Below, piece by piece: positions 3,001 to 41,362 of a DNA stretch of 64,000 nt; within the stretch, counting starts at the first letter, position 1; every line of letters starts with the position of its first letter. A model generated the notes under the pieces. The model worked only from the letters and a program-made list of their open reading frames with translations, was not told the origin of the DNA and ran no database searches. The position numbers were made by a program, and so were the translations under genes. This DNA comes from Thermoanaerobaculia bacterium (GTDB lineage: Bacteria > Acidobacteriota > Thermoanaerobaculia > Multivoradales > UBA5704): NCBI GenBank assembly GCA_044226625.1, contig JBGAGQ010000007.1:1-64000 (forward strand), in the 5' to 3' direction.

Positions 3001-5959
3001 ACGCCGCCGGGATCATGTAGTCGGGAAGGCGCTGCGAAAGATGGGCGCGCAGATCGGCAACCGAGGGAGCCTGCCCGCCGGAGGGGGTTGCGTAAGCGAC
3101 CAGGCGCGGCGCGGAACGGTCGCCGCGGGCGAGCACGATCGCTTCGCGCACGCCGGGGTGCTCGGACAGCGCCGATTCGATCTCGCCCAGCTCGATGCGG
3201 AAGCCGCGGATCTTGACCTGGGTGTCGATGCGCCCGAGGTATTCGAGATCGCCGTCGGCCAGGCGGCGGCCCAGGTCGCCGCTTCGATAGAGCCGCGCAC
3301 CCGGCTGCCCCGCGCCGAGCGCCGGTACGAACCGCTGCGCGGTCAGCTCCGGCCGGCCCAGGTAGCCGCGCGAAAGGCCCGCGCCACCGACCAGGATCTC
3401 TCCCGGCACCCCTACCGGCGCCAGCTCGCCCCAGGCGTCGAGAAGGTTGATCGAGAGGTCCGGGATCGGCTCGCCGATCCGGCTCTTCGCGCCGAGGTCG
3501 GCGGAGCGGATCCGCCGGTAGGTCACGTGGACCGTGGTCTCGGTAATGCCGTACATGTTGACCAGGGCGGGGGTGTCGTCGCCGTAGCGGCCGAACCAGC
3601 CCGAGAGCGCCGCGAGGTCGAGCGCCTCGCCGCCGAATACGACCGTCGTGAGCGGCAGCCGCTCCGCGCCGCCGGACATCGCGGCGGCGTCGACGCGATC
3701 GAGCTGGGCGAACGCCGAGGGCGTCTGGCTGAGCACGGTCACCTTCTCCGCCGCGAGCAGCGCCCGGAAATCCTCCGGCGACCGGCTCACCAGATACGGC
3801 ACGACCACCAGCCGGCCGCCGTAGAGCAGCGCACCCCACAGCTCCCAGACCGAGAAGTCGAACGCGTACGAGTGGAACAGCGTCCACACGTCGTCCGGGC
3901 CGAAACCGAACCAGGGCTCGGTCGAGGTGAACAGCCGGGCCACGTTCGCGTGAGAGATCACCACGCCCTTCGGTTTACCGGTCGAGCCCGAGGTGTGGAT
4001 CACGTAGGCCGCGTGAACGGGCGAAAGGTCCGCCGGGACGGCCTCGCCCGCGGGCTCCCCCTCACCTACCCCGTCGACCAGGACGCGCTCCACCCAGGAC
4101 GGCAGCGTCGCGTCGAGATCGCCGCGCGTCACCACCCAGCGCGCCGCCGTGTCTTCGAGGACATAGGCGTTGCGCTCCGCGGGATAGGTCGGGTCGAGCG
4201 GGACGTAGACGCCCCCGGCTTCGAGGACGGCGAGGATCGCGACCGGCAGATCGACCGACCGGTCGAGGCAGAGCCCCACGCGCGACTCGGGACCGACCCC
4301 CGCCGCGCGCAGCTTGCGTGCGAGGGCCGTCGCCTTCCGGGCGACCTCGCCGTACGAGACGGTCCGTTCGCCACACGTGACCGCCGGCGCGTTCGGCCGT
4401 GCCGCGGCGACCTCATGGAAGCGCCGATGGAGCAGGAACGGCGGCGCCGGCTCGCTCCGCGGCGTCGAGCAAGCCGCCCGACGCTCCGCGTCGTCGAGGA
4501 GCGGCAGATCGGCAAGCCGCTGGTCCGGATTGGCCGCGCCAGCCGCGAGCAGCCGCGCGAAGCGAGCGACGAACGCCCGGACGGTCGCCATGTCGAACAG
4601 GTCGGTCGCGAGCTCGGCCATGCCGCCGATCGGCGTTCCCGCCTGTCCGCCGTCGATCATCGACAGGGTGAGGTCGAACTTCGCGGTGCCGTGCTCGACC
4701 CGGATCGGCTCGACCCCGCCGCCCCCCGCGCCGCCGGCACCGCCGGCTTGGAGCGCGAGCACCACCTGGGCGAGCGGCGCATGGGCGAGGTCGCGCTCGG
4801 GCTTGAGCTCCTCGACCAGCTTTTCGAACGGCAGATCCTGGTGGTCGTACGCCGCGAGCGTCCGCTCCTTGGCGCGACGGACCAAGGTGCGGAACGTCGG
4901 GTTGCCGGAGAGGTCGGCGCGCAGCACCAGAGTATTGGCGAGGAAACCGATCATCCCTTCGAGCTCGGGCCGATTGCGGTTGGCGATCGGCGCGCCGATC
5001 AGGAAATCCTCGCTGCCGGTATAGCGGCCGATCAGCGCTTGCAGCCCAGCGAGCAGGGCCATGAAGGTCGTCGCTCCCTCGGCGCGCGCGAGCCCACGGA
5101 CGGAATCGGCGAGATCCGGCGGCAGGGAGAACGGCTCGCTCGCGCCGCGGAAGCTCTGCTTGGCCGGGCGCGGGCGATCGGACGGAAGCTCCAGGACCTG
5201 CGGCGCTCCGGCGAGCGCGCCGCGCCAGTAGGAGAGCTGCCGGTCGAGCTCGTCGCCGGCGAGGTGGCCGCGCTGCCAGAGCGCGAAGTCGGGATACTGG
5301 ATCGGCAGCTCGCGCAGCCCCGCCGCGCGGCTCGCGCGGCCGGCCGAAAACGTCGCGTAGAGCGCTCCGACCTCGCCGAGAAGAACCGCCATCGATCCAC
5401 CGTCCGAGATGACGTGGTGCTGGGTCGCGAGCAGCGCGTCACCCGAGGCGGAACGCAACAGCAGGGCGCGCAGAAGCGGCCCGCGCGCCAGGTCGAACGG
5501 ACGGCGCGCTTCGGCGCTCGCGATCCGCTGCAGCTCCAGTCCGCCGAGCCCTTCTCCCACCGCGACGAGGTCGACGGTTCGGAGCGGCACGAACGGCGTG
5601 CCGGACGAGGCGACCGGATGGACGACCTGCACGGCCTTGCCCTTCACCTCGGCGAACGTCGTGCGCAGCGATTCGTGGCGGGCGACGACCTCGGCGACGG
5701 CGCGGGCGAGCAGCCCCGGGGCGATGCGGCTCGGAAAGCGAAACGCCGAATAGAGGTTGTACTGGGCCGAGTTGGGATCGAGCCGATCGAGGAACCAGAG
5801 CCGCTGCTGAGCGTAGGAGAGCGGGATCTCGCCCGCGGCGGGATCCCGGCGCGGAATCGCGGCCGGGACGGCCGCGCCGAACCCTTCCTGTTCGAGCATC
5901 CTGGAAAGGAGGTCCAGGTCCTCGCCGGAAATCTCCCGGACCTTCGTCGTATCGCTCAT
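1..5959 (-). CDS. NRPS, 3'-truncated by the window edge: C-A(Thr/Dhb)-T-C(modAA-like)-A(Thr)...
   Basis: Missing from the ORF track because its stop lies outside the window, so translated by hand. ATG at 5959 overlaps the upstream TGA (ATGA). It starts MSDTTKVREISGEDLDLLSRML...LSYAQQRLWFLDRL. C motif HHVISDG; two A domains with FHSYAFDFSVWE and NMYGITETTVHVTY; T motif FFALGGDSI; second C with ENHAIFDGWS. Confidence 0.95.
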   Translation of the reverse strand, partial: MSDTTKVREISGEDLDLLSRMLEQEGFGAAVPAAIPRRDPAAGEIPLSYAQQRLWFLDRLDPNSAQYNLYSAFRFPSRIAPGLLARAVAEVVARHESLRTTFAEVKGKAVQVVHPVASSGTPFVPLRTVDLVAVGEGLGGLELQRIASAEARRPFDLARGPLLRALLLRSASGDALLATQHHVISDGGSMAVLLGEVGALYATFSAGRASRAAGLRELPIQYPDFALWQRGHLAGDELDRQLSYWRGALAGAPQVLELPSDRPRPAKQSFRGASEPFSLPPDLADSVRGLARAEGATTFMALLAGLQALIGRYTGSEDFLIGAPIANRNRPELEGMIGFLANTLVLRADLSGNPTFRTLVRRAKERTLAAYDHQDLPFEKLVEELKPERDLAHAPLAQVVLALQAGGAGGAGGGGVEPIRVEHGTAKFDLTLSMIDGGQAGTPIGGMAELATDLFDMATVRAFVARFARLLAAGAANPDQRLADLPLLDDAERRAACSTPRSEPAPPFLLHRRFHEVAAARPNAPAVTCGERTVSYGEVARKATALARKLRAAGVGPESRVGLCLDRSVDLPVAILAVLEAGGVYVPLDPTYPAERNAYVLEDTAARWVVTRGDLDATLPSWVERVLVDGVGEGEPAGEAVPADLSPVHAAYVIHTSGSTGKPKGVVISHANVARLFTSTEPWFGFGPDDVWTLFHSYAFDFSVWELWGALLYGGRLVVVPYLVSRSPEDFRALLAAEKVTVLSQTPSAFAQLDRVDAAAMSGGAERLPLTTVVFGGEALDLAALSGWFGRYGDDTPALVNMYGITETTVHVTYRRIRSADLGAKSRIGEPIPDLSINLLDAWGELAPVGVPGEILVGGAGLSRGYLGRPELTAQRFVPALGAGQPGARLYRSGDLGRRLADGDLEYLGRIDTQVKIRGFRIELGEIESALSEHPGVREAIVLARGDRSAPRLVAYATPSGGQAPSVADLRAHLSQRLPDYMIPAAFVTLEALPLTAQGKIDRKALPEPASTTDAEAYVAPRNLAEETLAAIWEQVLEVDRVGIHDGFFALGGDSIRSIQVLALARERGLEISLQQLFEHQTIAELAAHAGRAEGPLADVASSEPFSLLTPEDRQRLPSGPDGRDPAIEDAYPLAQLQAGMLFHMVLRPEDPPYHNVDSWQLVARFDEGAFARATADVVARHPVMRTSFHLTGYTEPIQIVHARATVPLTVKDLTGLAPEDQQREVASLVRAEKKALFDFTQPPQIRFFVHVLSPERFQFTLTENHAIFDGWSLHSTLAEIFGRYFAFLRGENPLPEPPLPLVFRDFIAAERRTLASAEAKAFWSERLAGATMLALPRRTPVAEAPDGPRVHRHTPNLSPEVSDGVRALARRLGIPLKSVLLGGHFKVMSLLSGSPDVMIGLGFNGRAEVLGGEDVRGLFLNTLPIRFRVADESFARISERAFETERSVLPFRRYPYSRLQQEHGGQPFYDVIFNYIHFHVANKMLAREGVALAGFQAAEGTSFLLQAAFAPGSDERGIHFALEYDSARLSDDDAAWIAGYYTRYFAALAEDADRSSATVSLLSPEEREQIRATSALAPAVDPAIHPRALPTLVDLFDRSVAAHGGRDAVRAGDEVLTYAELDARAKALARRLVRSGVRPGDFVAVSLDRSLDLPVALLAVLQSGAGYVPIDPTYPEDRKSLLQEDSGARLTIDAGMLADLGPALESAEEVALPRVDPGDVAYVIYTSGSTGKPKGVPVRHGEVARLLSSTEPWFGFGPEDVWTLFHSYAFDFSVWEIWGAFGYGGRLEVVPTDVSRAPETFYRLVRDRKVTVLNQTPSAFQQFLWAERGVVEADGEAPLSLRYVIFGGEALDLPTLAPWFDRHPEFSGESDGAGPRLVNMYGITETTVHVTYRPIAKADVDAKRGSLIGVPIPDLAIQVTDAFGVPAPLGVPGEMIVAGSGLAVGYLGRPELSAERFVPDAFSGRPGARAYRSGDLARRVVNRVG

Positions 5960-8900
5960 GCGTCTTCGGCTCCTTCGTGGGCGGGTGCGCCGGCGAGCAG
6001 CGTCTGACGCTCCTCGGCCGACATCTCTTGGATCTGACGTAACAGCTTCGCGGTGCGCGCCGTGAGGCCCGGCTGCTTTTCCTTGGCGATCAACGCGCGC
6101 GCCGCCGCCTCGATCGTCGTCGCGGCAAAGAAGTCGCGCAGCTCGAGGTCGATGCGGAACACCTTCTGGACCCGGGCCACCACCTTGGTCGCGAGCAACG
6201 AGTGGCCACCGATGTCGAAGAAGTCCTCGTCGATGCCGATCCGGTCGCGGTCGAGCACCTCGCACCAGATGTCGGCGAGCACCTTCTCGACGTCGGTCTG
6301 CGGCGCGACGTACGGGCGTTCGCCGGCGATCTTCGACGGGTCGATCGCCGCGAGCGCGCGCCGGTCGACCTTCCCCGCGGCGGTGCGCGGGAAGTCGTCG
6401 AGCACGGCGATGATCGCCGGCACCATGTATTCGGGGAGCTTGCCGCGCAGGATCTCCTTGAGCTGCACCGGATCGGGCCGCGCCTCCGTTGCGACGACGT
6501 AGGCGGTCAACCGCAGGTCGCCCTCCGCCGCCGGTCGAGCGATCACCGCGGCCTCCTGCACGCCCGCCTGCGTCCCGAGCACGGTCTCGATCTCCCCTAG
6601 CTCGATTCGGTAGCCGCGGATCTTCACCTGATGGTCGATGCGGCCGAGGAATTCGAGCTCGCGCGACTCGTGCGACGCCGCGTCGCGCGGCACGGCGGTC
6701 CAGCGCGCGAGGTCACCCGTCCGGTAGAGGCGCGCACCGGGCTCGCCGGAGAACGGATCGGGGACGAAGCGCTCCGCGGTGAGGTCGGGCCGGCCGAGGT
6801 AGCCGCGCGCGAGCGACGGACCGCCGAGCAGCAGCTCGCCCGGCACGCCGAGCGGTTGGGCCTCGCCGCCGCGATCGACGACATAGGTGGCGAAGGTCGC
6901 GATCGGCCGGCCGATCGTGAGACGCCCTCCCTCGTAGAGCAGGGCGGTGGCGCACACCGTGGTCTCCGTCGGCCCGTACGCGTCGACGAAGCGACGCCCC
7001 TGGCGCCACCGCTCGGCGAGGTCGGGAGGACAGGCCTCGCCCGCCACGATCAGCGCCGCCGGGACCCCCTCGGGAAGCTCGGGCAGGGCGGCGAGCGCGG
7101 AGGGCGGAAGCGTCGCGAGGGTGATCCGTTGCTCGACGAACAGGCGCGCGAGCCCGGCCCCCGGCATCCTCTGCTCGCGGCCGGCAAAGACCAGAGCGGC
7201 TCCGGCGCCCCACGCTTCGACGATCTCGGAGATCGAGGCGTCGAAACCGATCGAGGCGAACTGGAGCAACCGGTCGCCCGGTTCGAGCCCGGTGAGACGG
7301 GCGAGCTCCGTTCCGAGGTTCGCGACGCCGCGGTGGGTGACTCCCACCCCCTTCGGCGTCCCGGTCGAGCCCGAGGTGAAGATCAGATAGGCAAGAGTGT
7401 CGAGCGCCGCCGGCTCGTCGAGCGCCGGCTCGGGACGGGACTCGGGTTGGGTCGCCACGAGATCCCAGCCGCCGCCGTCGAGCGCGATCGCGAAGATCGG
7501 CATCGCCGGCAGAGACTCTTGGAGATGCTCCTGGGTGAGCACGATCGCGAGCCCGGCGTCCTCGATCAGGTGGGTCAGGCGCTCGAGCGGCAGTTGCGGA
7601 TCGAGCGGAACGTAGACGCCGCCCGCCTTGGCGATGCCGAGCAGGGCGATGCCCAGCTCGAACGACGGATCGCAGAACACGCCGACCGCCACGTCCGGCC
7701 CGACGCCGAACGCGCGCAGGTGATGGGCGAGCTGGTTCGCCCGCGCCTCGAGCTGGGCGTACGACATCTCCCGCTCGCCGGCGACCATCGCGGCGAGCTC
7801 GCCGTAGCGCTCGGCCGAGTCCTCGAACAGGCCGGCGAGGGTCCGCGGCGCCGCGGGAGCGTGGTCGGCTCCGTCAAAATGGCTCCAGTTCGAGACGATC
7901 TCCGTTCGCTCCGCCGCGGCCAGCAACGGCAGCTCGGCGAGCGGACGCGCGGGATCGGCGAGGGCCGCGGCGAGCAGGTTTTCGAGATGGCCGGCGAAGC
8001 GCCCGATCGTCGCGCGGTCGAAGAGATCGCTCGAGTAGACGAAAGCGCCGGTCATCCCCACCCCTTGATCGGAGAGGAAGAGCGCGAGGTCGGTCTTCGC
8101 GGTGCCGCTTCCGCCTTTCCACGGCTCGATCTCGACGCCGGGAAGCTCCAGGCGCCCCATCGCCGCGTTCTGGAACGAGAAGTTGACCGAGAAGATCGGC
8201 GGGCGCGACGGGTCGCGCTCCGGGTTCAGCTCGCCTACCAGCTTTTCGAACGGCAGGTCCTGCTCGGCGACCGCGTCGAGCAGGGTGCCGCGCGCCTCGT
8301 TCACGATCTCGGCGAACGTCGCGCCGGACCGCGGCCGCGAGCGGAGGACGAGCGTGTTGATGAAGAAGCCGATCAACCCCTCGATCTCGGGACGCGAACG
8401 CCCCGCGACCGGCGAGCCGACGAGCACGTCCTCGACCCCAGCGAGCCGGCCGAGCAACGTCGCGAACGCGGAGAACAGCACCATGAACGGCGAGGCGCTC
8501 GCGCCGCGGGCGAAGGAGCGGACGGCCGATTCGGTCTCCGGCGCGACGCGCCACCCGAGGTTGCCGCCACGGAACGTCTGTGCCGGCGGACGGGGACGAT
8601 CGGAAGGCAGGTCGAGCGCGAGCGGCGCGCCCGCGAGCGCGCGGGTCCAGAAGCCGAGCCGCTTTTCGAGCGCCGGGCCGTCGAGCCATGCGCGCTGCCA
8701 CGCCGCGTAGTCGGCGTATTGGATCGAGAGCGGCGGCAGCGGGTTTGGCCGTCCGGAGCGCGCCGCCGTATAGAGAGCGACCAGCTCGCGCACCAGGATG
8801 CCGCTCGACCAGTCGTCCGAGACGCTGTGGTGGAGGTTGAACAGACCGACGTGGTCCCCCTCGGCGAGCCGCACCAGCGTGGCCCGAACGAGTGGCCCAG

Positions 8901-11900: not shown

Positions 11901-14900
11901 GGCTCGCGGGGGCGAGCATCTCGCGCCACCAGCCGAGCTGCCCCTGAAGCGTAGGACCCGCGAGCCAGGCGCGCTGCCAGACCGCGTAATCGGCGTACTG
12001 GACCGGCAACGGCGCGAGCCCCGAGGGGCGGCCTTCGAGCGTCGCGGCATAGAGCGCGCCCACCTCGCGCGCGAGGATGCCCGAGGACCAACCGTCGGAG
12101 GCGATGTGGTGCATCGCGAACAGGACCGCGTGATCCTCGCCCGCCAGACGCACAAGCGCGGCGCGCAGAAGGGGACCGCGCACCAGATCGAACGGGCGAA
12201 GCGCTTCGGAGAGCGCGAGACGCGACAGCTCGGCTTCACACATCTCCCCTTCGATCCGGCCGAGATCGAGCCGGCGGAGTGCCACGGGCCGCGCCGGCTC
12301 GACGATCTGCACCGGATGGCCGTCCCGATCGCCGAACCGCGTGCGCAGCGCCGCGTGGCGGGCGACCAGCTCGTCGAGGGCGGCGGTGAGCGCCGGTACT
12401 GACAGCCGGCCGCGAAGGCGCAGGGCGGTCGGAATGTTGTAGGCCGGCGATTCCGGCTCGAGCCGCGCGAGGAACCAGAGCCGTTCCTGCGCGTAGGACA
12501 ACGGCAGCTCCTCGCCCTCGCGCCAGCCGGACGGTCCGAGCGGCACCCAACCGACCTCGCGGCGGGCGAAGCCGAGCGTTTCGGCCATGTCGCGCGTCGG
12601 CTCGCCGAGGAAGTCTTCGGTGATCTCGGTCTTCCAGCGGTCCGCGACGCTCTGCTCGACCCGTCCGTGGGTGTGGAACTTGACGTCGCCCAACATGCGC
12701 GACCAGGAGTGGAGGCCGTCGGTCATGCGCGCCGACTTCTTCTGCTCCGAGGCCTGGTAGGGCGCCGCCATCTCCGGCTGGTAGTCGAGACCGAGGAACG
12801 AGCAGACGCCTCGCAACACTCGCTCCGGTTCGGCCAGCAGCTCCTCGAACACCACGGCGTGCTTGCGCTCCGCCGGAATCCCCTCGAAGAACGCCAGGAT
12901 GTTCCGATGCGAAACGAGCCAGATCAGCTCGGCCAGCTCGCGGCGCGAGAAGTCGTGCTCGGCGCGGAAGAACACCTGGTCGAGCTTCGCCTCCTCGAAC
13001 GACCGGATCATGCCGTACGGATGGCGGATCAGATGGATGTAGCGCGCTCCGTCGAACATCTGCTCCGCGCGCTCGAGGATGCTCGGATGGAGCGAGTAAC
13101 CGGGGGTCTTGTCGACCAAGAGTCGCGGCGCCGCCGATTCCTGGAGCCGCGCGAAGACCTCGGCCATCGAGATCCCCTCCTGCTCCCAAGCGTCGAGCTT
13201 CGCCTCGGCTTCCTCGGCGGTCGAGCGGTCGAGCTCCATCACCGCGCGCACCGCCCCTTCGAGGAAGTGGTTGTAGCGGCCCGGGAAGTCGTCACGCCGC
13301 TCGCGCAGGTCGTCGTACGGCAGCAGCTCGAGCTCGGGCGGCGCGAACAGCAGCGGATGCCCCGCGAGCATGACGCGGAACAGCGTCGAGCCCGAGCGCG
13401 GAGGCGAGAGCACGAACGCGGCCGCGGGGTTCTTCCGATCGGCTGCGAGACGCGCCGGACGACGCACCGGGACCAGCGCGTTGAACCGCGCGATCTTCGC
13501 CTCGTCGATCGGACCGACGCGGGTCGCCGAGCCGCCGGCCTCGACGCCGAAGCGGCGGGCGAGCGCCGCCGGGTAGTGCTCGGTCAGGTAGGCCGCCAAG
13601 CCCTCGACGGTCGGCGCCTCGAACATCACCACCACGTGGACGATCTCGCCCAGCTCCTCCTGGAGCCGGTTGACCAGCATCGCCCCCGCGATCGAATTGC
13701 CCCCGAGCTCGAAGAAGTTCTCGTCGATCCCCACCGCGTCGACGTGCAGGGTCTCGGCGAACAATCCGACCAGGAACGACTCGAGCGCGTTCCTCGGCGC
13801 GGCGATCTCGCGCTCGGCGGCCCCCGCCTCGCGCGGATCGGGCAGCGCCCGGCGGTCCACCTTGCCGCTCGCATTCTTGGGCAAGGCGGCGAGGATCGCG
13901 ATCGCCGAGGGGATCATGTATTCGGGCAGCGTCCGACCGAGGAACGCCCTCAGCTCGGCCGCCTCCAACGGACCGCCGGAGCCCTCGCGCGGCACGACGT
14001 AGGCGACGAGGCGCTTTTCCGTGCCCCCTTCCGCCCGCGCGACCACCACGGCCTCCAGGACCTCGCCGTGGCCGAGCAGCGCCCGTTCGATCTCCCCCAG
14101 CTCGATGCGGAAGCCGCGCACCTTGACCTGCGTGTCGATCCGGCCGAGGAATTCGAGATCGCCGTGCGAGCTCCAGCGGACCAGATCGCCCGTGCGATAC
14201 AGCCGAGCCCCCGGAACGGAGCCGAAGGGATGCGGCACGAAGCGTTCGGCGGTCAGGTCGGGCGCGCCGAGGTAACCGCGCGCGAGCGCGATGCCGCCGA
14301 CCGCGAGCTCTCCCGGCGTGCCGATCGGCGCCAGGCTCCCTCTCGCGTCGAGCACGTAGGCGTCGACGCCGGGGATCGGAGCGCCGAGCGGCAGCCTGCC
14401 CGAGCCGGGCACGAAGGCGTGCATCGCGATGCAGACCGTGTTCTCGGTCGGACCGTAGGCGTTGACGACCTTCCGCCCGGCGCACCAGGTCTCGGCCAGG
14501 TCGACCGGGCAGGCCTCTCCGGCGACCACCAGCGAACGCAAGGCGGGCAGCGCTTTGTCGACCGGCAGCGCAGCGAGCGCGGACGGCGGCAAGGTGACGT
14601 TGGAGATCGCCTTGTCGCGCAGCAGCGTGTAGAGCTCGAACCCGGGGAGGATCGAGGCCTTCGCCGCCATCACCAGCGCCGCGCCGTTGGCGAGCGCCAC
14701 GGCGATCTCGGACACCGACGCGTCGAAGCCGCTCGAAGCGAACTGCAACAGCCGCGGCTCGGGTCCGGAGCCCGGCAGGACCTCGAACATCCGGCCCTGC
14801 TCCCGAGCCAGGTTTTCGAGACCCCGGTGGGTGACCGCGACCCCCTTGGGCTTACCCGTCGAGCCCGAGGTGTAGATCACGTAGGCGAGCTGGTCGGGCT

Positions 14901-17900
14901 CGACGACCGTCGAACCGGCATCGTCGGGAGCGTGATCGAGCGATCCCTCGATCGCGTCGAGGTCGATCACCCAGGCGGCATGCTCCGGCAGCTCGTCGAG
15001 CAGCGACGCCTCGCTGAGCAGGATCGGCACGCCCGCGTCGCGGATCATCAACGCGAGCCGGTCGGAGGGCAGGGTCGGATCGAGCGGCAGATACGCGCCC
15101 CCAGCGAGCCAGGTCGCGAGCATCGCCTCGACCAGGCGCGGCGAGCGCTCCAGGAACAGTCCCACCAACACCTCGGGGCCCACGCCCATGCCGCGCAGAT
15201 GCCGCGCGAGGCGCTCGCAGCGTTGCGCGAGCTCGCCGTAGGTCGTCCGCTCCTGCTCGAACAGGATCGCGAGCGCCTCCGGCCGTTCCTTCGCTTGCGC
15301 CAGGAACAGCTCGGCGATCGAACGTCCGGAGGACGGCGGCGAGGCGACGCGGGCCGAGCCCGAGAAGACGTCGAGCAACTCGTTGCGCTCGGCCGGCAGC
15401 AGCAGGTCGAGCGTCGACAGCGGCCGTTCGGGCTCGGCGGCCGCCCGCTCCAAGAGGAGGACGAGTCGCCGCGACAGCCGCTCGATCGTCGCCGGTTCGA
15501 ACAGCTCGACGTTGTAGCGAAGCTGGGCGTGGATGGGCTGGCTTTCGCCGCCGTCCACCGCCATCCAGGTCAGGTCGAACTTCGAGATCTCGAGCGCCTG
15601 AACGAGCGGCCGGATGACCAGGTTCGGCAGCGGCTCGACCCCGCCCGACGGCGGCGCGTCGACCACCAGGTGGACCTGGAAGATCGGCGAATGGGCACGG
15701 CTCCGGGTCGGCGAGAGGTCCTCGACGATCCGTTCGAACGGCACGTCCTGATGCGCGTAGGCGCCGAGCGTCGTGCCGCGCACGCGGCCGAGCAGCTCCG
15801 CGAACGACGGGTCGCCCGCGAGGTCGGTGCGCAACGCGAGCGTGTTGACGAAGAAGCCGATCAGCCCTTCGAGCTCGCGCCGGGTCCGGCCGGCGATCGG
15901 CGTGCCGACCACCACGTCCTCGACGTTCGCCACCCGGGCGAGCAGGGCGTCGAACGCGGCGAGCAGGGTCATGAAGATCGTCGTACCGCGCGCGCGGCCG
16001 AGCGCACGGAGCGCGTCGGCGAGCGCCGCCGGAACCTCGAAGCGGACCCGGCTGCCGTCGAACCTTTGCACGGCCGGTCGCGGCCGGTCGAGCGGCAGCT
16101 CGAGGAGCGGCGGCGCGCCCGCGAGCTTCTCGCGCCACCAGGCGAGCTGCTGGTCGAGCGCTTCGCCCTGGAGCCAGCCGCGCTGCCAGAGCGCGAAATC
16201 CGCGTACTGCACCGGAAGCTCGGGAAGCGGCGACGGCCGCCCGAGCGCGAGCGCCGGATACAGAGTGCCGATCTCGGCCAGGATCACGTCGTTCGACCAG
16301 CCGTCGGTCGCCAGGTGATGCATCGCGACCGTCATCCGCCAGGAGCGTTCCGCCATCCGCACCAGCACGGCGCGAGCGAGCGGCGCCTCGCCGAGGTGGA
16401 AGGGCCGATGCGCCACCTCGTAGGCAATCGCTTCGGCGCGCTCGATCCGAGCCTCGTCGGGCAAGTCGAGGAGGTCGACTTGCTCGAACGGGAAAGGCAT
16501 CGCGGGCTCGACCACCTGCACCGGTTTGCCCCCCTCGACCGCGAAGCGGGTGCGGAGCATCTCGTGCCGAGCGACGATCCCGTCGAGCGCGCCGCGCAGG
16601 GCGGCCACGTCGAGGTCGCCGTCGAGAGTCACCGACGACGAAACGTTGTACGCCGAAGTGCCCGGCTGCAGCTGTTCCAGGAACCAGAGCCGCTCCTGGG
16701 CGAACGACAGCGGCGAGGAGGCTCCGCGCGGCTGACGCTCGAGCGGCGGGACTTCGGCGAGGAGCGCGCCGCTCCCGCCGAGGATGTGCTCCATCCCCTC
16801 CTGCTCGATCGCTGCGGCGAGCCGGCCGAGCTCGGGCGCTTCGAACACGCGCCGCAGCGGCAGCTCGACGCCCAGCACCTCGCGGATCCGAGAGACCAAA
16901 CGCATCGCGAGCAGCGAATGTCCGCCGAGGTCGAAGAAGTGCGATTCGACCCCGACCGGCCGCCCCCCGAGCAACTCCTGCCAGATCCCCGCGAGCAGCT
17001 CTTCGATCGGGGTCCGCGGCGGCGTGATCGGCGTCTCGGCCGAGCCCGAGGCGACCGCGGAATCCGGCGCCGGAAGCGCCTTGCGATCGACCTTGCCGCT
17101 CGGCGTCAGCGGGAATCGTTCGAGCCGCGAGAACGACGACGGCAGCATCGGCTCCGGCAACCGGCCGCGCAGGAAATCGAGCAACGCCTCGCGCAACGTG
17201 GCGCCGCCGCCGAGCCCCGCGCCCGCGCGCTCGACCACGTACGCCGCGATCCGCTTGTCCTCCCCTTCGCCCACCAGCGTCGCCGCCGCCGCCGACACTC
17301 CCGGATGCTCCGCGAGCACCCGCTCGATCTCTTGCAACTCGATCCGGTGCCCTCGCACCTTCACCTGGTGGTCGATCCGGCCCAGCGCTTCGAGCCGCCC
17401 GTCAGCTCCGAATCGTGCGAGGTCCCCCGTCGCATACAGCCGCGCACCCGCCGCTTCCGCGAACGGATCCGGGAGGAAGCGCTCCGCCGTCAGATCCGGA
17501 CGCCCGTGATATCCGCGTGCCACGCCCGCGCCGCCGATCCACAGCTCCCCTGGAACCCCGCGGGGCACGAGATTGCCGCGCCCGTCCACCACGTGGACCG
17601 TGGTCGCCCGGATCGGCCGCCCGATCGTGATCGGTCCCTCGTCCACCCGGTCGAGCGTCGACCAGACCGCCGTCTCCGTCGGACCGTACATGTTCCACAG
17701 CTCGCCGACCTTCGGGCCCAGCTCCGCGGCCAGCGCGGGCGGCAGCGCCTCGCCGCCGACCAGCGCCTTGAGCTTCCCGTCGCCCGTCCAGCCCGAGGCG
17801 AGGAGCACCCGCCAACCCGAAGGCGTCGCCTGCAAAGCCGTGGCCCCGCTCGTCCGCAGCAGATCGGCGAGCAGCCGGCCGTCCGCGACCTCGTCGCGCC

Positions 17901-20900
17901 GGGCGATGACGATTCGAGCGCCGACCAGGAGCGGCGCGTAGAGCTCCAGCCCCGCGATGTCGAAGGAGAGCGACGTCGAGGCGATCCAGACGTCGGCCGG
18001 AACAACCCCCGGCCGCTCGATCATCGCCGCGAGGAAGTTCGCGAGCGCGCCGTGCGGCAGCTCGACGCCTTTCGGCCGGCCGGTCGAGCCCGAGGTGTAG
18101 ATCGTGTAGGCGAGGCCCGCCGGCAGCGTGCGCGGCGAAAGGCTGCCGCCAGCCTCCGGTCGGCCCTCCCCTTCGAGGGCGCCACCGGGTGCGAGGCGGA
18201 CGATCGAGGGGGCGAGCGTTTCGAGGGCGTTTCCGGAGCTGCCGGCGTCGACGATCAGCGCCGCGAGGCCCGCATCCGCCGCCATGTAGGCGAGGCGCTC
18301 GGCCGGGTAGCCCGGGTCGAGCGGCACATAGGAAGCGCCCGAGGCGAAGACGCCGAGCGCGGCGATGGGAAGGGAGGCCGAGCGCTCGACCGCGATGCCC
18401 ACCTTGGCCTCGCGCTCGATACCGAGCGCGATCAGCCGGCGCGCGAGCGCGTTCGAGCGAGCGAGAACCGTGGCGTAATCGAGCGTCGCCGCGCCGTCGA
18501 TGACCGCCGGTGCTTCCGGCGTGCGCAACGCTTGCGCCGCGAACAGCGACGGAACGGTTTGCTCGCTGCCGTCCTGAAGGCCCTCGGCGCCGCGACCCAA
18601 CGCCGACAACTCGGCGCGCTCCGACGCGGAGAGCAGCGGCAGATCGAAAAGCCGCGTTTCCGGCCGCTCCGCGGCGCCCGCGAGGAGGGTCGCGTAGCCG
18701 CGCGCGAGGCGCTCGATCGTCGCCGTCTCGAACAGGTCGGTCGCGTACTCCCAGCGGATCGAAAGCCCGTCCGCACCCAGCCGCAGGTAGAGCTGCAGGT
18801 CGACCAGGGCGGTCTCGGCCGAGACCGCGACCGGCGCGAGCGAGAGATCTCCCGACTCTCCCCCTTCGAACGGCGTGTTGACCAGGTTGAACATCAGCTG
18901 GAACAGGGGATTCCGCGACAGGTCGCGGCGCGGCGAAAGCTCTTCCACCAGACGCTCGAACGGCAGGTCCTGATGCGCATAGGCACCGAGGGCCGTCGCC
19001 TTCGCGCGGCCGACCATCTCGGCGAACGCCGGGTCGCCCGCGACCGAGGTGCGCAGGACGAGAGTGTTGACGAAGAACCCGATCAGCCCTTCGACGTCGG
19101 AGCGCGTCCGGTTCGCGACCGGCGTACCGAGCACCGAATCCCCCTCCCCAACGTAGCGCGCGACCAGCGCTTGGAAGCCGGCGAGCAGCACCATGAAGGT
19201 CGACGCCGAGCGAGCGCGGCCGAGCGCCTCGAGCGGCGCCAACCGCTCGGCGTCGATCGCGGTCTGGATCGTGCGGCCGCGATGGCTCGCGACGCTCGGC
19301 CGAGGCTTGTCGGTCGGCAGCTCCGAGGCGGGCAACGCCGCGAGCCGCTCCCGCCAGTAGGCGAGCTGGCGCTCCAGCTCTCCTCCCGCGAACCAGGCGC
19401 GCTGCTCGACCGCGAAATCGGCGTATTGGAGCGGCAGCGCCGGCAACGGCGAGGTCAGGCCACGACGCAATGCCCCGTAAACCCGCGCCACCTCACCGAA
19501 GAGCAGGCCCATCGACCATCCGTCGGAGACGATGTGGTGCATCGCGTAGACCAACGCGTGCTCGCGCGGTCCGAAGCGAACCAGCCAGGAACGGAGCAAC
19601 GGCGCCTTCTCGAGATCGAACGGCAGGGCGAACTGCGCCCGCGCGAGGCGCGTCAACTCTCCCTCTTCCCGAACCGAGGCCAGAGCCGAGAGATCGATCT
19701 CCGCGGTCCGGAGCTCGAGGTTCCGTTCGATCACCTGGACCGGCTCGCCGCCCACGTCTTCGAAGCGGGTTCGCAGCGTGTCGTGCCGTCGGCCGATCTC
19801 GCGCACCGCCTCGTAGAGGGCGGCGCGATCGAGAGGACCGGACAGGCGGACCGCGCCGCCGAGGTTGTAGAACGGATTGCCCGGCGCCAGTCGATCGAGC
19901 AACCAGAGGCGCGACTGGGCGAACGACAGCGGCGCGCGGTCGCGCCGCGCCCGCGGCATGAAAGCCTCGGGGGCCAGCTCGGTCGCGGAATCCCGCGAGG
20001 CCGCCGCGGGCGTTTCGGTTCGGCCGTCGATCGCCGCCGCGAGCGCGCCGAGCCTCGGCGCTTCGAACACACGGCGCAGCGGCAGCTCGACGCCCAGGTC
20101 CTCGCGAACCCGTGCGAGGAGCCGCATCGCGAGCAGCGAATGGCCGCCCAGCTCGAAGAAGTGCGACTCGACCGAGAAGGTCGGATGTCCCAACAACTCC
20201 CGCCAGAGCACGGCGAGCCGCAGTTCGGTCGGCGTGCTCGGCGCGGCACCCACCTGGTCGGCGGCTTGCGGGACGATCGCGGCGAGGGCCTTGCGGTCGA
20301 CCTTGCCGTTCGGCGTGAGCGGCAACTCGGCGAGCCGCACGAACGTCGAGGGGATGAAGCTCTCCGGCAACCGCGCCCCCAGGTGCGCCGCGAGCGATTC
20401 ACGCAGGGCCGCGCCTTCCCCGAGATCCGCCCCGGGCCGCGCGACGACATATCCCACCAGGCGCCGGTCCTCGCCGTCGCCCACCACGGCCGCCGCGGAC
20501 GCGAGGACGCCCGGCATCTCGGCGAGAGCGCTCTCGATCTCGCCCAGCTCGATCCGGTGCCCCCGAACCTTCACCTGATGATCCGTCCGGCCGAGGCACT
20601 CGAGCCGCCCGTCGGCAAGGAAGCGGCCCACGTCGCCCGTTCGATAGAGCCGCGCCCCCGGTTCTTTCGAGAACGGATCGGGAACGAATCGCTCGGCCGT
20701 CAGATCGGGGCGGCCGCGATACCCGCGCGCGACGCCGGTGCCGCCGATCCAGAGCTCTCCGACGAGGCCGCGCGGACGCGTCTCGCCGCTCGGATCGACA
20801 GCGTAGATCCGAGATCCGGGCAGCGGCCGGCCGATCGAGACCGGTCCCGGCCGCACCGGCTCAGCCGTAGACCAGACCGCGGTCTCGGTGGGGCCGTAGA

Positions 20901-23900
20901 GGTTCCACAGCTCTCCCACCTTGCTCCGTAGCTCGGCGGCGAGCGCGGGCGGCAGTGCCTCCCCGCCGACGAGGGCCTTCAAGCGGCGATCTCCGCTCCA
21001 TCCGGAAGCGAGCAGCACGCGCCAACCCGAGGGGGTGGCTTGGAGGATCGTCGCCTCTTGGCTCTCGAGCAGGTCCGCCAACAGCCGGCCGTCGGCGGTC
21101 GTCTCGCGCGAGGCGAGCACCGTCCGGGCGCCGACCAGGAGCGGCGCAAACAGCTCGAGCGCCGCGATGTCGAACGACAGCGAGGTGACCGCCACCCAGA
21201 CGTCGTCGGCGCCGGCCCCGGGCCGGTCGATCATCGCGGTCAGGAAGCTCGCCAGCGCGCCGTGAGATACCTCGACCCCCTTGGGCTTGCCGGTCGAGCC
21301 CGAAGTGTAGATCGTGTAAGCGAGGCTCTCGGACGACGGAGCCGGGAGCTCCCGCACCTTCGCCCCTTTGGCTCGGCCGACGATCTCGCCGCCCGCCGTC
21401 AGCTCGACCGCGACCCGGGCCGTCACCCCTCCGGCCGCGAGCGTCTCTTTGAGCTGCGTCCCCTCGACGATCAGCGCGGCGAGCCCGGCGTCTTCCGCCA
21501 TGTAGGCGAGGCGCCCGATCGGATAAGCGGGATCGAGCGGAACGTACGAGGCGCCGGAGGCGAGCACGCCCAGAACCGCCACGGGCAACGCCGCGGAGCG
21601 CTCGACCGCGATTCCCACTTTCGCCTCGGCACCCGCTTCCCCTCCGATCCCGAGCGCGACGAGGTGCGCCGCCAGGCGCTGCACCCGCGAGCCGAGCGTC
21701 GCGTAATCGAGCGTCTCGCCGCCGGCGACGACCGCCACGCGCTCCGGAGCTTGGCGGACCTGGGCGCGGAAGCGTTCGGGGACGCTCTGGGCGGAGGCCG
21801 TCACCTCGACGCCGGCGCCGACGCGCAACGTCTCGTCGCGTTCCGCCGGCGACAGGAGCGGTAGGTCGGAGAGGCGGACGGACGGCTCCTTGCCGGCCGC
21901 CTCGACCACGTTGCGGTAATGCCGGGACAACCGCTCGACGGTCGCCGGTTCGAACAGGTCCACCGCGTATTCCCAGCCGATTTCCACCCGGTCGGCCGCC
22001 TCGAACAGGTAGAGCTGCAGGTCGAACGGCGAAGCTCCCGAACGCAAGGCGAGGAGCCCGCCGAGACGGTCCTGACCGTCGCTCTCCTCCCCCATCGGCA
22101 GCAGGTTGAACATCAGCTGGAAGAGGGGGTTCCGCGACAGGTCGCGACGAGGGGAGAGCTCTTCGACCAGGCGCTCGAACGGCACGTCCTGATGCGAGAA
22201 GGCGTCGAGAACGAGATCTTTGGTCCGGTCGAAGATTTCATCGAACGACGGATCGCCCGCGAGGTCGGCACGCAACACCAGGTTGTTGACGAAGAAGCCG
22301 ATCAGCGACTCCTCGTCCGCGCGCGTCCGGCCCGCGATCGGCACGCCGATCACCAGATCGGTCTGGTTGGCGTAGCGCGAAACCAGAGCGTAGTAGGCGG
22401 CGAGCAGCGCCATGAACGGCGACCCTCCGCGGCCGCGCGCGTTCTTGGCGAGGGGTGCGAAAACGTCCGAGCCGAGCGTCGATCGGAAGGTGACGCCGCG
22501 ATGGCTCGGCGACGCGGGACGAGGGCGATCGACGGGGAGCTCCGTGATCGGCGCACCGCTCAGGCGGGCGCGCCAGAACGCGAGATGACGGTCGCCCTCG
22601 CCGCGCGCAAAGCGCTCGCGCTGGCGGGCCGCGACGTCGGAATAGCGGATCGGCAGAGGCGGCAAAGGCGAAGGGAGACCCGCCGCGAACGCCGGATAGA
22701 CCGCGAGCAGCTCGCGGCCGAACACGCCGAGCGACCAGCCGTCGGAGATGATGTGGTGGAAGCTGTAGACGAGCGCGGAATCGCGCGGGGCGAGGCGGAG
22801 CAGGACGAAACGGGCGAGCGGGGACCGCCCGAGATCGAACGATCGCCCGAGCTCCAACGCCGCCAACCGCCTGGCTTCCGCGTCGCGCCGGAACTGCGGC
22901 AGCCCTTCGAGCCGAACTTCCGGCAGCGGCACCGCGACCTCCGGAGCGACCACCATCCGCGGCCGGCCGTCGACCTCGCCGAAGCTCGCCCGCAGGGGCT
23001 CGTGCCGCCGCACCACCTCGGCCAGCGCCGAGCGAAGCGCGCGGACGTCGACCTCTTGGGTGAGCCGCTGCGCCGAGCCCAAGGTGTAGAACGAGTTGTC
23101 GGGAACCAGCCGGTCCAGCAGCCAGAGCCGTTCTTGGGCGAACGCCATCGGCCGCTCCTCCCCGACGGCGGCGGGGCCCCTCGAGGCGACGGCTTCGAGC
23201 GCGGGGCTCGGTCCGGCGAGCAGCCCGTCGACCTCCCGCGAGAGGGCGGCAACGGTCGGCGCTCCGAACAGGGCGTCGAGCGGCAGGTCGACCCGGCAGA
23301 CCTCGCGGACGCGCGAGACGACGCGGGTGGCGAGCAGCGAGTGGCCGCCGAGATCGAAGAAGTTGTCGTTCGCTCCGACCTCGGCGATCCCGAACAGATC
23401 GCCCCAGATCGCCGCGATCCGGCGCTCGCTCGCGGTCCGAGGAGCGACGTAGGCCGTGCTGAGCGCGGGCCTCGCGTGAGAGGCGATGACGTTCGCCGGC
23501 GAGATGCCGCTTCCGGTCGACCGAGGGGCGGCGATGTCGCCGACCGGAGCGGCCGCAATGGCTGTGACGGCGAGGCTCGCCGCGCGCGGTTCGAGGAAAT
23601 AGCGCTGGCGTTCGAACGGATACGTGGGCAGCTCGACCTTTCGCCGTCGCTCCCCCGCGTAATAGAGCCGCCAATCGATCTCGCCGCCCCGCACCCAGAG
23701 CTCGGCCACCGCGCGGGCGAGCCGTTCGGCGTCGGCGATGTCCTCTTTCGGGTGGCGTAGGCTCGCGATCGCGACGCCCGCGAGACCTCCTTCTCGACGG
23801 CGCGCGAGCGTCCCGAGCGAGTTGCCCGGACCGACCTCCAGATAGATCGCGTCCCCTTCCGCGGCGAGCGTCTCGAGCCCAGCGGCGAAGCGGACCGCAT

Positions 23901-26274: not shown

Positions 26275-29200
26275 CGCTGCTCCCCATCCGTTGAGCCGGC
26301 CTGACCGGCCGCCTGCCTACGTTCAAGCCGCATCCGCCGGCGGTCCTTGCCCGCTTCGATCACGTCCGCCCGCGCCTCGACCGACGCCACGTCCGAGGCC
26401 GCCCCACCGTCCAGGAAACGCGCGAGCGACGCCACGTCGGGGTGACGGAACAGGTCGATCACCGCGATTTCCCGGCCGAGCCGTTCGGCCAGCCGACCGT
26501 GGGCTCGCACCAGGAGGAGCGAGTGCCCTCCCAGGGCGAAGAACTTGTCGTGACGGCCGACCCTCTCGAGGCCGAGCACCTCGCGCCAGACCTCGGCGAT
26601 CGCCTGTTCGGTCGGCGTCCGCGCCGCCACGTATTCGGCCGACGCCGTCGCCGTCGCGCGCGGCTCGGGCAGAGCCCGGCGATCGATCTTGCCGTTGGGC
26701 GTGAGCGGCAGACGTTCGAGCGCCATCCAGAGCGAGGGCACCATGTACTCGGGCAGCCGGGAACGCAGCAGCTGACCGAGCTCCTCTCCCGAGGGCTCCG
26801 CGGCTCCCGGCGCCGTCACGAAATAGGCGACCAGCCGCTTCGCTCCCGAGGCGTCCGGCCGCGCCACGACGACCGCCTCGCGCACGCCGGGATGGCGCGC
26901 GAGGGCCGCCTCGATCTCGCCCGGCTCGATGCGGAAACCGCGAATCTTCACCTGCGCGTCGGCGCGCGCGACGAACTCCACCTCGCCGTCCAGCCGATAC
27001 CGGCCGAGGTCTCCGGTGCGATACATCCGATCGCTCGCGGCGACCGCCCCCGGCGCCGCCACGAACCGCTGACGGGTGAGCTCCGGGTCGCCCAGGTAGC
27101 CGGCCGACAGATGAGGGCTCCGCACCGCGATCTCGCCCACCTCGCCGAAACCCGCTGGACGCCCCTCGGCGTCGAGCACCAGGAGCTGCACGTCCTTCAT
27201 CCCGCGGCCGAGCGGCAGGATCTCGCGCCGGGCGGCCGCGGGACCGTTCGCCCCGGCGCCGTCGCTCCGCTCCTTCCCATGCTCGACCACGTGATAGGCC
27301 ACGGCGCGCTGGGTTTCGGTCGAGCCGTAGAGGTTGACGCAGGTGAGATTCGGCGCCAACCGTTCGAGCCGGGCCACGTCGAGGCGGGTGAGCGCGTCGC
27401 CGACCAACAGAGCGCGGCGCAGCGAGGGCACCGAGACCGTCGTGCCACGCGACGCCATCAGCTCGGCCGATTCGGCGATCAGCTGTCCCATCGCGGGGGT
27501 GAGGTGGGCGACCGAGACGCCGCGCTCGGCCATCCAGGCGGCCAACCGCCCCGGGGTCGCGATGTCGGAAGGATCGGGCACCGCGATCGTCGCGCCCAGG
27601 CTGAGCGGGGTGAACAGATCGCGCTGCAGCGGATCGTGCGCGAGGCCGGAGAGCAGGCTGAAGACGTCGTCCTCGCCGAGCGCGAGCTCCGCGCACTGCC
27701 AGGGCAGGAAATGCGAGAGCGGTCCGTGCCGGCCGACGATCCCCTTCGGTTGCCCGGTCGAGCCCGAGGTGAACGCGACGAGCGCCGGGTCGTCGGGCCC
27801 CAGCTCGACCGGTGCCAGCGGCGAGCCGGCCACCGCCACCAGGGCGGCCAACGTCGAAGCGGCCCCTCCGACCGGCAGGTCGATTCGGATCGCGTCGGCG
27901 CGCGCGAGCCAGGCTTCGATCTCGGCCGGCAGCGGGCCCGCGGCCTCGAGCCGGATGAATCCGCGCGGGGCGGCCAGATCGAGCATCGCGAGGATCCGCT
28001 CGGCCGGATAGGCCGGATCCAGCATCGCGAACGCGCCTCCCGCTTCGAGCGTGCCGAGGACCGCCGCGGCCAAGGGAGCGCTCCGATGGGCCCAGACCGC
28101 CACCCGTTCTCCGCGCTCGATCCCTCGGCGACCGTCCTCCGGCTGGCGGAGGCGCGAAGCGATCCTCGCGGCGGCTTCGGCCAGCTCGCCGTAGCTCCAG
28201 GCGCCCGCCCGGTCGACCACGGCGAGGCGCTCCGGCCGGCGGTCGGCCTGCCGGCGAAACAGCGAATCGATCGAGCCGTGCCAGGTCGAGTCGAGCGCCT
28301 CTCTCGGATCCGGGAGCACCGCGTCGGCCGCGGCCGTGCGCAGCCGGATCTCGGAGATCGGCCGGTCGGGCGCGGCGAGCGCCTGAACGGTCACGCCCTC
28401 GATTTGCTCGAGGAGGTCGCGCATCCGCTCGGGGCGGAAGAGGTCGGCGTTGTAGACCAGGTGCAGCGAAAGGCCGTCGGGGACTTCCGCGGCGTAGATC
28501 GTGAGGTCGAATTTCGATTCGACCTCCGGCACCGAGATCGGCTCGATCGAGAGCCCCTCGAACCTCACCTCGGCGCGGGGCAGGTTCAACATGTTCAGCA
28601 GGACTTGGAAGATCGGCGTGCGCGACAGGTCGCGCTCGACGTCCAACTCCGAGAGCAGCCGTTCGAACGGCACGTCCTGGTTGGCGTAGGCCGCGAGCGC
28701 GGTGTCGCGCGACCGGCTCACCAGCTCGCGGAAGCTCGGGCGCCCCGAAAGATCGGCGCGCAGGGCGAGGGAATTGAGGAAGAAGCCGATCAACCCTTCG
28801 AGCTCGGGGCGGCCGCGACCCGCGATCGGGCTGCCCACCGCGAAGTCCTCCTGCCCCGACTGACGGCCGAGCACCAGGGAGAAAATCGCGAGCAGCACCA
28901 TGTAGGGGGACGCGCTCATCGTCCGCGCGAATTCCGCGAGCTTCGCGGCGAGCGGTTGCGGCAGGACCTTGAGCTCGCTGCCGCCCCGGAACGTCTGAAT
29001 CGCCGGCCGCGCGAAGTCGGTCGGCAGCTCCAGCGCCGGCACGCTGCCGAGCCGCTTGCGCCAGTACGCGAGCTGCTCCGCGAACGTATCGTTCGCCCCG
29101 AGCCGCTCGCGCTGCCAGACGGCGAAGTCGGCGTACTGGATCGCGAGCTCCGGCAAGGGGGCGAAGGCGCCGCCGCGCGCCGCGGCCATCCGCGGATAGA

Positions 29201-29804: not shown

Positions 29805-30084
29805 CCTGCCTGCTCCTTGCCGCACCGCTTCGACCGATTTCGCGCGCGGCAAAACACCGCTACCCACATCGCGGCGCTGTTCTGAAGATGGGCCACGGAC
29901 CCTCCGGGGGTCCAAGCGCCATCCTTAGTTTGTCGTTGGCTGGGAAGCGAAGAGAGCCAGCGTGGCGGCTCTCTCCGAACGGCACGAAGTCCACCCGATG
30001 GATAGTGCCGCCTACGAACCGAAACGGGACGTTCGCGACGCGCCCGGAATCTGTGCAAGAACCTGAAAACGCAGGGGCTAACGG

Positions 30085-41070: not shown

Positions 41071-41362
41071 GGGCAAGGAACCTCCGTGCGATGGACGGTG
41101 CACGAACGGGAACGGCACGCTTCCGCTTCCGGCATCAAACCAACCTTACGATGCGTTGCGCCTGAGAAGACGTGCCTGAATAGCCAACGGCGGAGACTGG
41201 ACGGACGCCGCCTGCGCTTCGAACATAACGGCTCCGGACGAGCGAAGCAACTTGCAGCGGCGGGGAGCAGATTTCGCGCGACCGCCCGTTCGGCCGCTCA
41301 GCCTCCGGCCGAAAGCTCACGGTCGATCGGGCGAGCCCCGCCCCCCGGATCTCCGCGAGTAC

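Follow-up and report, generated by a model that had tools for sequence, protein, structure and literature searches.

A sulfotransferase domain embedded in a tyrosine-coded module of an acidobacterial NRPS/PKS line is predicted to sulfate the residue on its own carrier

The window, the whole 64,000-nucleotide stretch analysed here, corresponds to the first 64 kb of contig C109 from a Thermoanaerobaculia bacterium (genome G000; 6.6 Mb, 133 contigs, 67.7% G+C, completeness 97.9%, contamination 5.5%). Three co-directional genes of nonribosomal peptide synthetase (NRPS) and polyketide synthase (PKS) type occupy bases 1-29915 on the minus strand, and the large hybrid gene among them carries the subject of this study, a sulfotransferase (ST) domain predicted to use 3'-phosphoadenosine 5'-phosphosulfate (PAPS). 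The hybrid gene is one unbroken open reading frame (5956-26274, -) encoding a protein of 6772 amino acids (P0001), in which Pfam matches, motif positions and hidden Markov model (HMM) envelopes give the domain order KS-AT-ACP-C-A-T-C-A-T-C-A-T-ST-C-A-T-C-A-T (KS, ketosynthase; AT, acyltransferase; ACP, acyl carrier protein; C, condensation; A, adenylation; T, carrier). The ST follows the carrier of a module with a Tyr-type specificity code, and the combined results suggest that it probably sulfates, in cis, the Tyr bound to that carrier.

The domain envelopes were obtained with HMMs built on P0001's own domains and agree with Pfam. The Tyr-coded module opens with condensation domain C3 (15373-16722, -; residues 3185-3634, delimited by its HMM envelope, with the motif HHLATDG at 3319), which is followed by adenylation domain A3 (13819-15324, -; residues 3651-4152; homologues in the PDB include 1amu, 4.9e-94) and carrier T3 (13588-13791, -; residues 4162-4229, supported by HMM, motif and Pfam), with LGGNSI at 4190-4195 and Ser4193. 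The ST (12505-13464, -; residues 4271-4590) comes after ~40 linker residues, and condensation domain C4 (11155-12513, -; residues 4588-5040, from its HMM envelope, with HHIASDG at 4722) begins without a linker where the ST ends and hands the chain to a module with the code DAWQFGLIDK. An ST between carrier and condensation domain in mid-line, with no thioesterase (TE) behind it, is what a preliminary description of this DNA had proposed for positions 12570-15320, a span that takes in A3 and T3 and all but a small part of the ST. Profile alignment returned the A-domain codes of P0001, in order, as DILQLGLVWK, DILQLGMVWK, DASTVAAVCK, DAWQFGLIDK and DASTIAAVCK, and so reproduced the DASTVAAVCK that had been read by hand for A3; judged by published code tables, these codes are of the Gly, Gly, Tyr, Gln and Tyr types. 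The code columns were anchored on the GrsA-PheA positions, and the return of several canonical-looking codes served as an internal check.

The ST was identified by Pfam, by phmmer against the PDB, by a structure model and by alignment. It matches Sulfotransfer_3, the family against which a search had been proposed, with E 9.4e-27 and 95.1 bits against a cut-off of 27. Over ~290 residues its best PDB homologues are the STs of olefin synthase (OLS; 4gox, 1.2e-67) and CurM (4gbm, 3.1e-66). An AlphaFold2 model from a 15-row alignment reached a mean predicted local distance difference test score (pLDDT) of 80, with lower values of 57-65 in model residues 241-270, and a predicted template modelling (TM) score, pTM, of 0.81. 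Its top Foldseek matches were the same two structures (4gbm, E 3.5e-24, TM 0.86; 4gox, E 7.9e-24, TM 0.89; target-normalized), and the next folds were tyrosylprotein sulfotransferases (E ~1e-7 to 1e-8, TM 0.44-0.52). The motifs already pointed out in the preliminary description, PRSGSTLFRVMLAGH, PPEL, VDK and RHPY, are all present, with PRSGST at 4292-4297, PPELE containing Glu4314, VDK containing Lys4389, and RHP at 4417-4419 followed by Ser4425. PRSGST, the Glu of PPEL, VDK and RHP...S, to which we assign PAPS-binding and catalytic roles, lie in motifs that are invariant or at least 90% conserved in ST alignments of 15 and 123 rows. In the 123-row alignment, the window ST retains 115 of the 128 columns that are at least 90% conserved in 121 relatives. 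The ratio of nonsynonymous to synonymous substitution rates (dN/dS) against an 87%-identical orthologue in genome G001 is 0.13, the lowest among the catalytic domains of the gene (0.16-0.34 for KS, AT, A and C), and the domain is 85-88% conserved in one paralogue and three orthologues. Given the conserved motifs, the low dN/dS and an adenylyl sulfate (APS) kinase encoded in G000, the ST looks functional and would use PAPS as donor. The sole NCBIfam match for the ST was a sub-threshold NoeE hit (44 bits against a cut-off of 500), and there is thus no curated family for it.

The window ST is a member of a large uncharacterised family of NRPS-embedded STs. A homologue search limited to proteins of 609-2000 amino acids, with 8000 candidates scored, gave 905 ST matches at E<=1e-20. 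The best 120 are 51-63% identical to the window ST, and those with names are mostly NRPS fragments from metagenome-assembled genomes (MAGs) of Thermoanaerobaculia, Pyrinomonadaceae, Blastocatellia and other Acidobacteriota. Annotation of these 120 proteins with the HMMs from the window protein showed the ST to be followed by a C domain in 50, by a tail of more than 150 residues in 60 and by the protein end in 10; the tails measure 211-410 residues in all but two of the 60, and precomputed Pfam annotation lists thioesterase PF00975 for most tailed proteins. The C domains behind STs were considered as one dedicated clade, an idea that was dropped as the labels cluster but need 13 changes. In an even sample of the phylum, STs at E<=1e-40 occurred in only 5 of 401 genomes: G000, the other two genomes of its family, which hold 3 and 5 copies, and two that are distant. 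Four orthologous loci close to that of the window, with 86-90% identity, were found in MAGs of Thermoanaerobaculia and other Acidobacteriota. G000 itself encodes two further STs, one on contig C28 in the order A(DFWNVGMVHK)-T-ST-C and one in a paralogous line on contig C98 (C98:3669-18527, with locus L022 at 14200-18529) with the order KS-AT-ACP-C-A-T-C-A-T-C-A(DASTVAAVCK)-T-ST-C. Compared with the window, the C98 line is 85% identical in the ST, 76% in A3 and 55% in C4, which suggests a stronger constraint on the ST or an exchange of the ST between the two lines; with a contamination of 5.5%, the C98 line may also stem from a second strain. The genome is unusually rich in NRPS sequences: when a single C and a single A domain of the window gene served as tblastn queries, they matched 80 and 82 times, respectively, on ~20 contigs.

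The comparison of STs with the modules that precede them bears most directly on the acceptor. Among the best 120 proteins, 105 A domains stand directly before T-ST, 66 with complete and 39 with truncated codes. Ser-, Thr- and Tyr-like codes together make up 36 of the 66 (15 Thr-like DFW[NS].G[ML]VHK, 13 Ser-like DVWH.SLVDK and 8 Tyr-like DAST.A.V.K), and the remainder comprises 22 codes of a DG[LF][FY]xGE..K class and 8 others. In the same proteins, A domains that do not precede an ST gave a Ser- or Thr-like code in 1 of 12 complete cases. Mapped on a maximum-likelihood tree of 123 STs, the code classes required 48 label changes, compared with a shuffled mean of 78.6 and with none of 200 shuffles as low, a clustering that near-copies and the non-independence of kin inflate and that is thus supportive and not a probability. 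The window ST and its paralogue fall in a starred 15-row clade with 5 Tyr-coded, 3 DLKNVGSDVK-coded and no Ser/Thr-coded members, the other 7 lacking a readable code. Collectively, these data point to the hydroxy amino acid loaded in the same module as the residue on which such STs act.

The pairing extends to the carrier and to the ST itself. Of 118 T domains that precede an ST, no more than 8 carry GGHS[LI], the common forms being GGNSI (31), GGDSI (26), GGDSL (20) and GGSSI (10), compared with GGHSL in 32 of 38 other T domains. A carrier subtype without the His is therefore typical of ST partners and explains the GGNSI of T3, which had been correctly singled out as atypical. Three ST columns (4334, 4434 and 4523) separate Tyr-partner from Ser/Thr-partner STs, with 4334 the clearest: 30 of 33 STs with Ser/Thr partners have Asp here, whereas the 12 with Tyr partners have Phe in five, Tyr in four and Asn in three cases. 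The window ST has Tyr at this position, as do all 22 partners of DG-class modules, and CurM and OLS have Leu. Position 4334 is consequently a candidate acceptor switch, Asp versus aromatic, as read from alignment columns. The DG-class STs (e.g. P0054, P0064 and P0095) form one starred 23-row clade; all of their proteins seen at full length are single-module C-A-T-ST-TE enzymes of ~1700 amino acids, and 21 of 22 have a TE-size tail. This class looks like a conserved stand-alone sulfating terminal module.

The window cluster is cut by the contig end, and no other NRPS-bearing contig end in G000 opens with a C-terminal A-domain fragment that would complete it. As the remainder of the cluster was not located in G000, its orthologue in G001, a member of the same genus that is also listed as G269, was used instead. 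This orthologue (G001:C118:153317-206017) lies within a 325-kb contig and is complete, with four genes, 15 modules, one extra condensation-family domain that is probably an epimerase, and a terminal thioesterase. Its sole ST stands behind the first DAST-type module, and the modules without an ST include one with a Ser-like code, two with Thr-like codes and one further DAST-type module. The code DASTVAAVCK recurs in the paralogue and in this orthologue, and DASTAAAVCK is found in two further orthologues. No hydroxylase or other tailoring enzyme was found in the G001 line or in its flanks, of which ~8 kb upstream and ~10 kb downstream were covered, which argues against beta-hydroxy-Tyr and in favour of the phenol as acceptor. 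The upstream flank holds a type I restriction-modification system, and the downstream flank a PLD-like protein, a di-haem oxidoreductase-like fragment and an AAA/DUF4143 protein. On the side where the window has its DnaE border, G001 thus has the restriction-modification system and other unrelated genes, and the neighbourhood of the cluster is not conserved.

The fate of the sulfate can be approached through relatives of the ST. Two proteins, P0109 and P0113, have the order FkbH-T-ST (FkbH domain, 4.3e-91 and 1.9e-82), and their STs are 51% identical to the window ST and nest inside the same tree. According to PMC2533009 and PMC6520454, the FkbH/ST loading modules of OciA and DysB go with a retained sulfated glyceric acid. 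The window ST reads PPELE, so the His of PPELH, two residues after the catalytic Glu, is absent; PPELE is found in 120 of the 123 NRPS-type STs, and PPELH in CurM, OLS and two PKS-type STs of genome G104. A CurM-like terminating role for the NRPS ST-TE units was considered and rejected, as the TE tail of the C-A-T-ST-TE protein P0096, one of the 60, matched ordinary TEs of NRPSs and fatty acid synthases, with no CurM TE in 37 matches. The FkbH-T-ST kin, the ordinary TE tail and PPELE in place of PPELH all point to sulfate retention. The two G104 STs that keep PPELH (L021, G104:C24; L020, G104:C95) are mid-line domains, and one of them has the order KR-ACP-ST-C (KR, ketoreductase), an arrangement in which a sulfated beta-hydroxyacyl chain would pass to a C domain and not to a TE.

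From these data, a model of the Tyr-coded module can be proposed. A3 would load tyrosine onto T3, a carrier subtype adapted to an ST partner, and the ST would move sulfate from PAPS to the T3-bound Tyr, most likely to its phenolic oxygen, before or after C3 attaches the upstream chain. C4 would then condense the sulfated intermediate with the next residue, that of the Gln-type module, and the product would carry one specific sulfotyrosine in a hybrid peptide of ~15 units. Sulfation at a single site is expected because the Ser-like, Thr-like and other DAST-type modules of the G001 line lack an ST. That PAPS is the donor, that A3 loads Tyr, that the phenol accepts the sulfate and that the product keeps it are inferences from comparison with relatives, and we judge the model as a whole, in-cis O-sulfation of carrier-bound Tyr, probably at the phenol and with the sulfate retained, to be reasonably probable. 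The preliminary description had presented the ST as probably repurposed for its module's own Tyr or beta-hydroxy-Tyr. A CurM/OLS-type ST in a T-ST-C arrangement behind a Tyr-type code is indeed what is found, and the comparative data indicate the residue of the own module as acceptor, but a singular repurposing of CurM is not what 905 matches and 50 T-ST-C arrangements in the best 120 describe; of the two acceptors, the phenol is now favoured and beta-hydroxy-Tyr disfavoured, given the complete G001 cluster. Nothing supports the further suggestion that the peptide mimics sulfated signalling peptides.

Several observations weigh against the model or speak for a specific alternative. One concerns the chemistry of the family. 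CurM and OLS, whose activating STs are the closest solved homologues, are described in the literature as sulfating a beta-hydroxyl that then serves as leaving group, and the many sister STs with Ser/Thr partners also meet a hydroxyl beta to the thioester, so that the ancestral acceptor geometry of the family would be a beta-hydroxyl and not a phenol. In the G104 order KR-ACP-ST-C, too, a related mid-line ST is preceded by a KR, which forms a beta-hydroxyl. The window ST could by analogy sulfate a beta-hydroxyl, for instance on beta-hydroxy-Tyr made in trans, with the sulfate lost during or after condensation, so that the final peptide would be free of sulfate and would contain a dehydro-residue, a ring or some other product of elimination or substitution. 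The hydroxylase that this would take is missing in and beside the complete G001 cluster, although one may be encoded elsewhere in the genome, and the window cluster ends at the contig edge with its own flank beyond the contig. The loss, in Tyr-partner STs, of the Asp typical of Ser/Thr-partner STs suggests another binding mode, and PPELE, the TE tail of P0096 and the FkbH-T-ST relatives speak for retention; leaving-group activation consequently appears unlikely. Weak points of our model itself are the inflated label clustering on the tree and the proposed switch at 4334, a residue that may or may not line the acceptor pocket.

The identity of the loaded residue is a second point of doubt, since it was deduced from one 10-residue code, and the specificity code strings were not found in the literature searched. 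Moreover, the 22 DG-class codes and the 8 others, like the Gly-like code described below, depart from the rule of a hydroxy amino acid partner, and DG-class STs share the residues at 4334, 4434 and 4523 with Tyr-class STs, so that these STs serve more than one aromatic-looking code. That A3 loads a Tyr-related hydroxylated aromatic or a mixture, and that the ST sulfates this residue, is nevertheless rather unlikely: the code departs from the Phe type mainly at position 239, with Ser for Trp, the classic Tyr signature, it recurs among the paralogue and orthologues listed above, and no genes for the supply of unusual amino acids adjoin the G001 cluster. An acceptor elsewhere on the peptidyl chain, sulfated on T3 after C3 has acted, is conceivable as sulfation and condensation may occur in either order, and in genome G097 (L019, G097:C229, C-A-T-ST-hydrolase) the Gly-like code DILQLGMIWK precedes an ST, where the module's own side chain cannot be the acceptor. 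In the window line, however, the upstream units, namely the starter, a malonyl unit from the KR-less PKS module and the residues of two Gly-type modules, offer no obvious hydroxyl, and the ST subtype tracks the class of the adjacent A code, which makes such an acceptor very doubtful. Finally, the window ST deviates by substitution at seven conserved columns (e.g. His for Phe at 4336 and Asp for Thr at 4322), and its two small inserts affect six more; together with the lower pLDDT of the segment mentioned above, this would fit a catalytically dead domain kept as a structural spacer. The lowest dN/dS of the catalytic domains, the intact motifs and the conservation of the domain in paralogue and orthologues make that reading most improbable.

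The locus has several further features. The upstream gene (26271-29915, -) encodes a C-A-T protein with the code DPRHLVLRAK and is the first module of the line according to Pfam, its code and the orthologue g1_153317_156970. The PKS module of P0001 follows (23233-26244, -), with KS at residues 11-430, AT at 536-816 and ACP at 947-1014 (Pfam ketoacyl-synt, Acyl_transf_1 and PP-binding); the AT carries HAFH, a malonyl motif according to PMC7327777. No Pfam match to a KR was found in this module, in which just ~130 residues separate AT from ACP, in line with the absence of a KR reported before. The last C domain of P0001 (residues 5815-5821; window 8814-8834, -) has HHSVSDD in place of the usual HHxxxDG. 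The downstream gene (2-6265, -) has the order C-A(DFWSVGMVHK)-T-C-A(DFWNIGMVH-) by Pfam and codes, and is cut by the contig end. From 30266 on, the genes are unrelated to biosynthesis and include a DnaE-type polymerase, histidine kinases, an RHS protein, a CHAT/TPR protein and a Ser/Thr kinase. The DnaE-type DNA polymerase III alpha gene (30266-33736, +) directly borders the cluster. A hybrid histidine kinase of 1911 amino acids (35383-41118, -) has nine HAMP stretches, a GAF domain and three receiver stretches, and is adjoined by a second hybrid kinase (33764-35473). The RHS-repeat protein of 1648 amino acids (52162-57108, -) shows a weak C-terminal match to Ntox44 (E 1.2e-4, below the Pfam cut-off) and is probably a polymorphic toxin.

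Nonribosomal peptides rarely contain sulfate esters, and where they do, free-standing enzymes usually add them. As a tentative generalization, held with somewhat less confidence than the model itself, the Acidobacteriota, and one Thermoanaerobaculia family in particular, may possess uncharacterised NRPS 'sulfation modules' in which a carrier without the His and the switch at 4334 fit the ST to whichever of Ser, Thr and Tyr its own A domain specifies, and the window line would be the first shown to install a sulfotyrosine on the carrier, at one Tyr among several. If true, an ST in an elongation module would provide a site-selective, co-linear route to sulfotyrosine, and to O-sulfo-Ser and O-sulfo-Thr in sister modules, and the rules for NRPS structure prediction could take in such a domain. 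The family is large and concentrated in uncultivated, NRPS-rich Acidobacteriota, and the function of one A-T-ST unit would annotate hundreds of orphan modules. The pairing of ST subtype with A code and the Asp/aromatic switch are, in addition, concrete hypotheses for the engineering of acceptor choice.

Neither an A-T-ST-C module nor a nonribosomal sulfotyrosine was found in the open-access main texts searched, although the supplementary biosynthetic gene cluster tables of Acidobacteriota genome mining may list such domains; the matches for in-line or natural-product STs were free-standing STs, FkbH/ST loading modules and ACP-ST-TE systems. The free-standing enzymes TPST1/2, SulN, StaL and RaxST use PAPS to sulfate O or N positions of residues bound in peptides, and they do so in trans or once assembly is complete, in contrast to the window ST, which is part of the line and would act in cis. 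The substrate of SulN is an NRPS intermediate still bound to its carrier. Characterised STs of the free-standing kind are listed in PMC11143521. A classification of the window ST as a tyrosylprotein sulfotransferase was rejected, as a sequence E of ~2e-3 and the TM scores given above make it a distant relative only. CurM and OLS share its fold and family, the PRSGST, PPEL Glu, VDK and RHP...S motifs and a carrier-bound substrate in cis, but their STs act on a KR-made beta-hydroxyacyl-ACP and are followed by a TE, whereas the carrier in front of the window ST is an NRPS T domain that receives its residue from a Tyr-coded A domain, and a C domain comes next; they read PPELH where the window reads PPELE, and their role is leaving-group activation where that of the window ST is predicted to be decoration. 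The window ST was likewise rejected as an ACP-ST-TE unit of decarboxylative termination, as it is preceded by C-A-T, with no KR in the only PKS module, and followed by a C domain, two more modules and a further gene. OciA (cyanopeptolin) and DysB (dysinosin) resemble it by description in that an ST is embedded in an NRPS with modules after it and the sulfate is retained in the product, and the sequence link to them runs through P0109 and P0113. Their acceptor is an FkbH-derived glycerate in a loading module, in contrast to the amino acid that the window module, an internal elongation module, loads through an A domain of its own; since A3 loads T3 and no FkbH is present, the window module was not assigned to the FkbH-T-ST type. 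The concept of an in-line ST with retained sulfate thus has a precedent in OciA and DysB, and the window combines it with the features typical of the NRPS-embedded family: the A-T-ST-C order, a carrier other than GGHSL and a partner coded for a hydroxy amino acid with the matching ST subtype.

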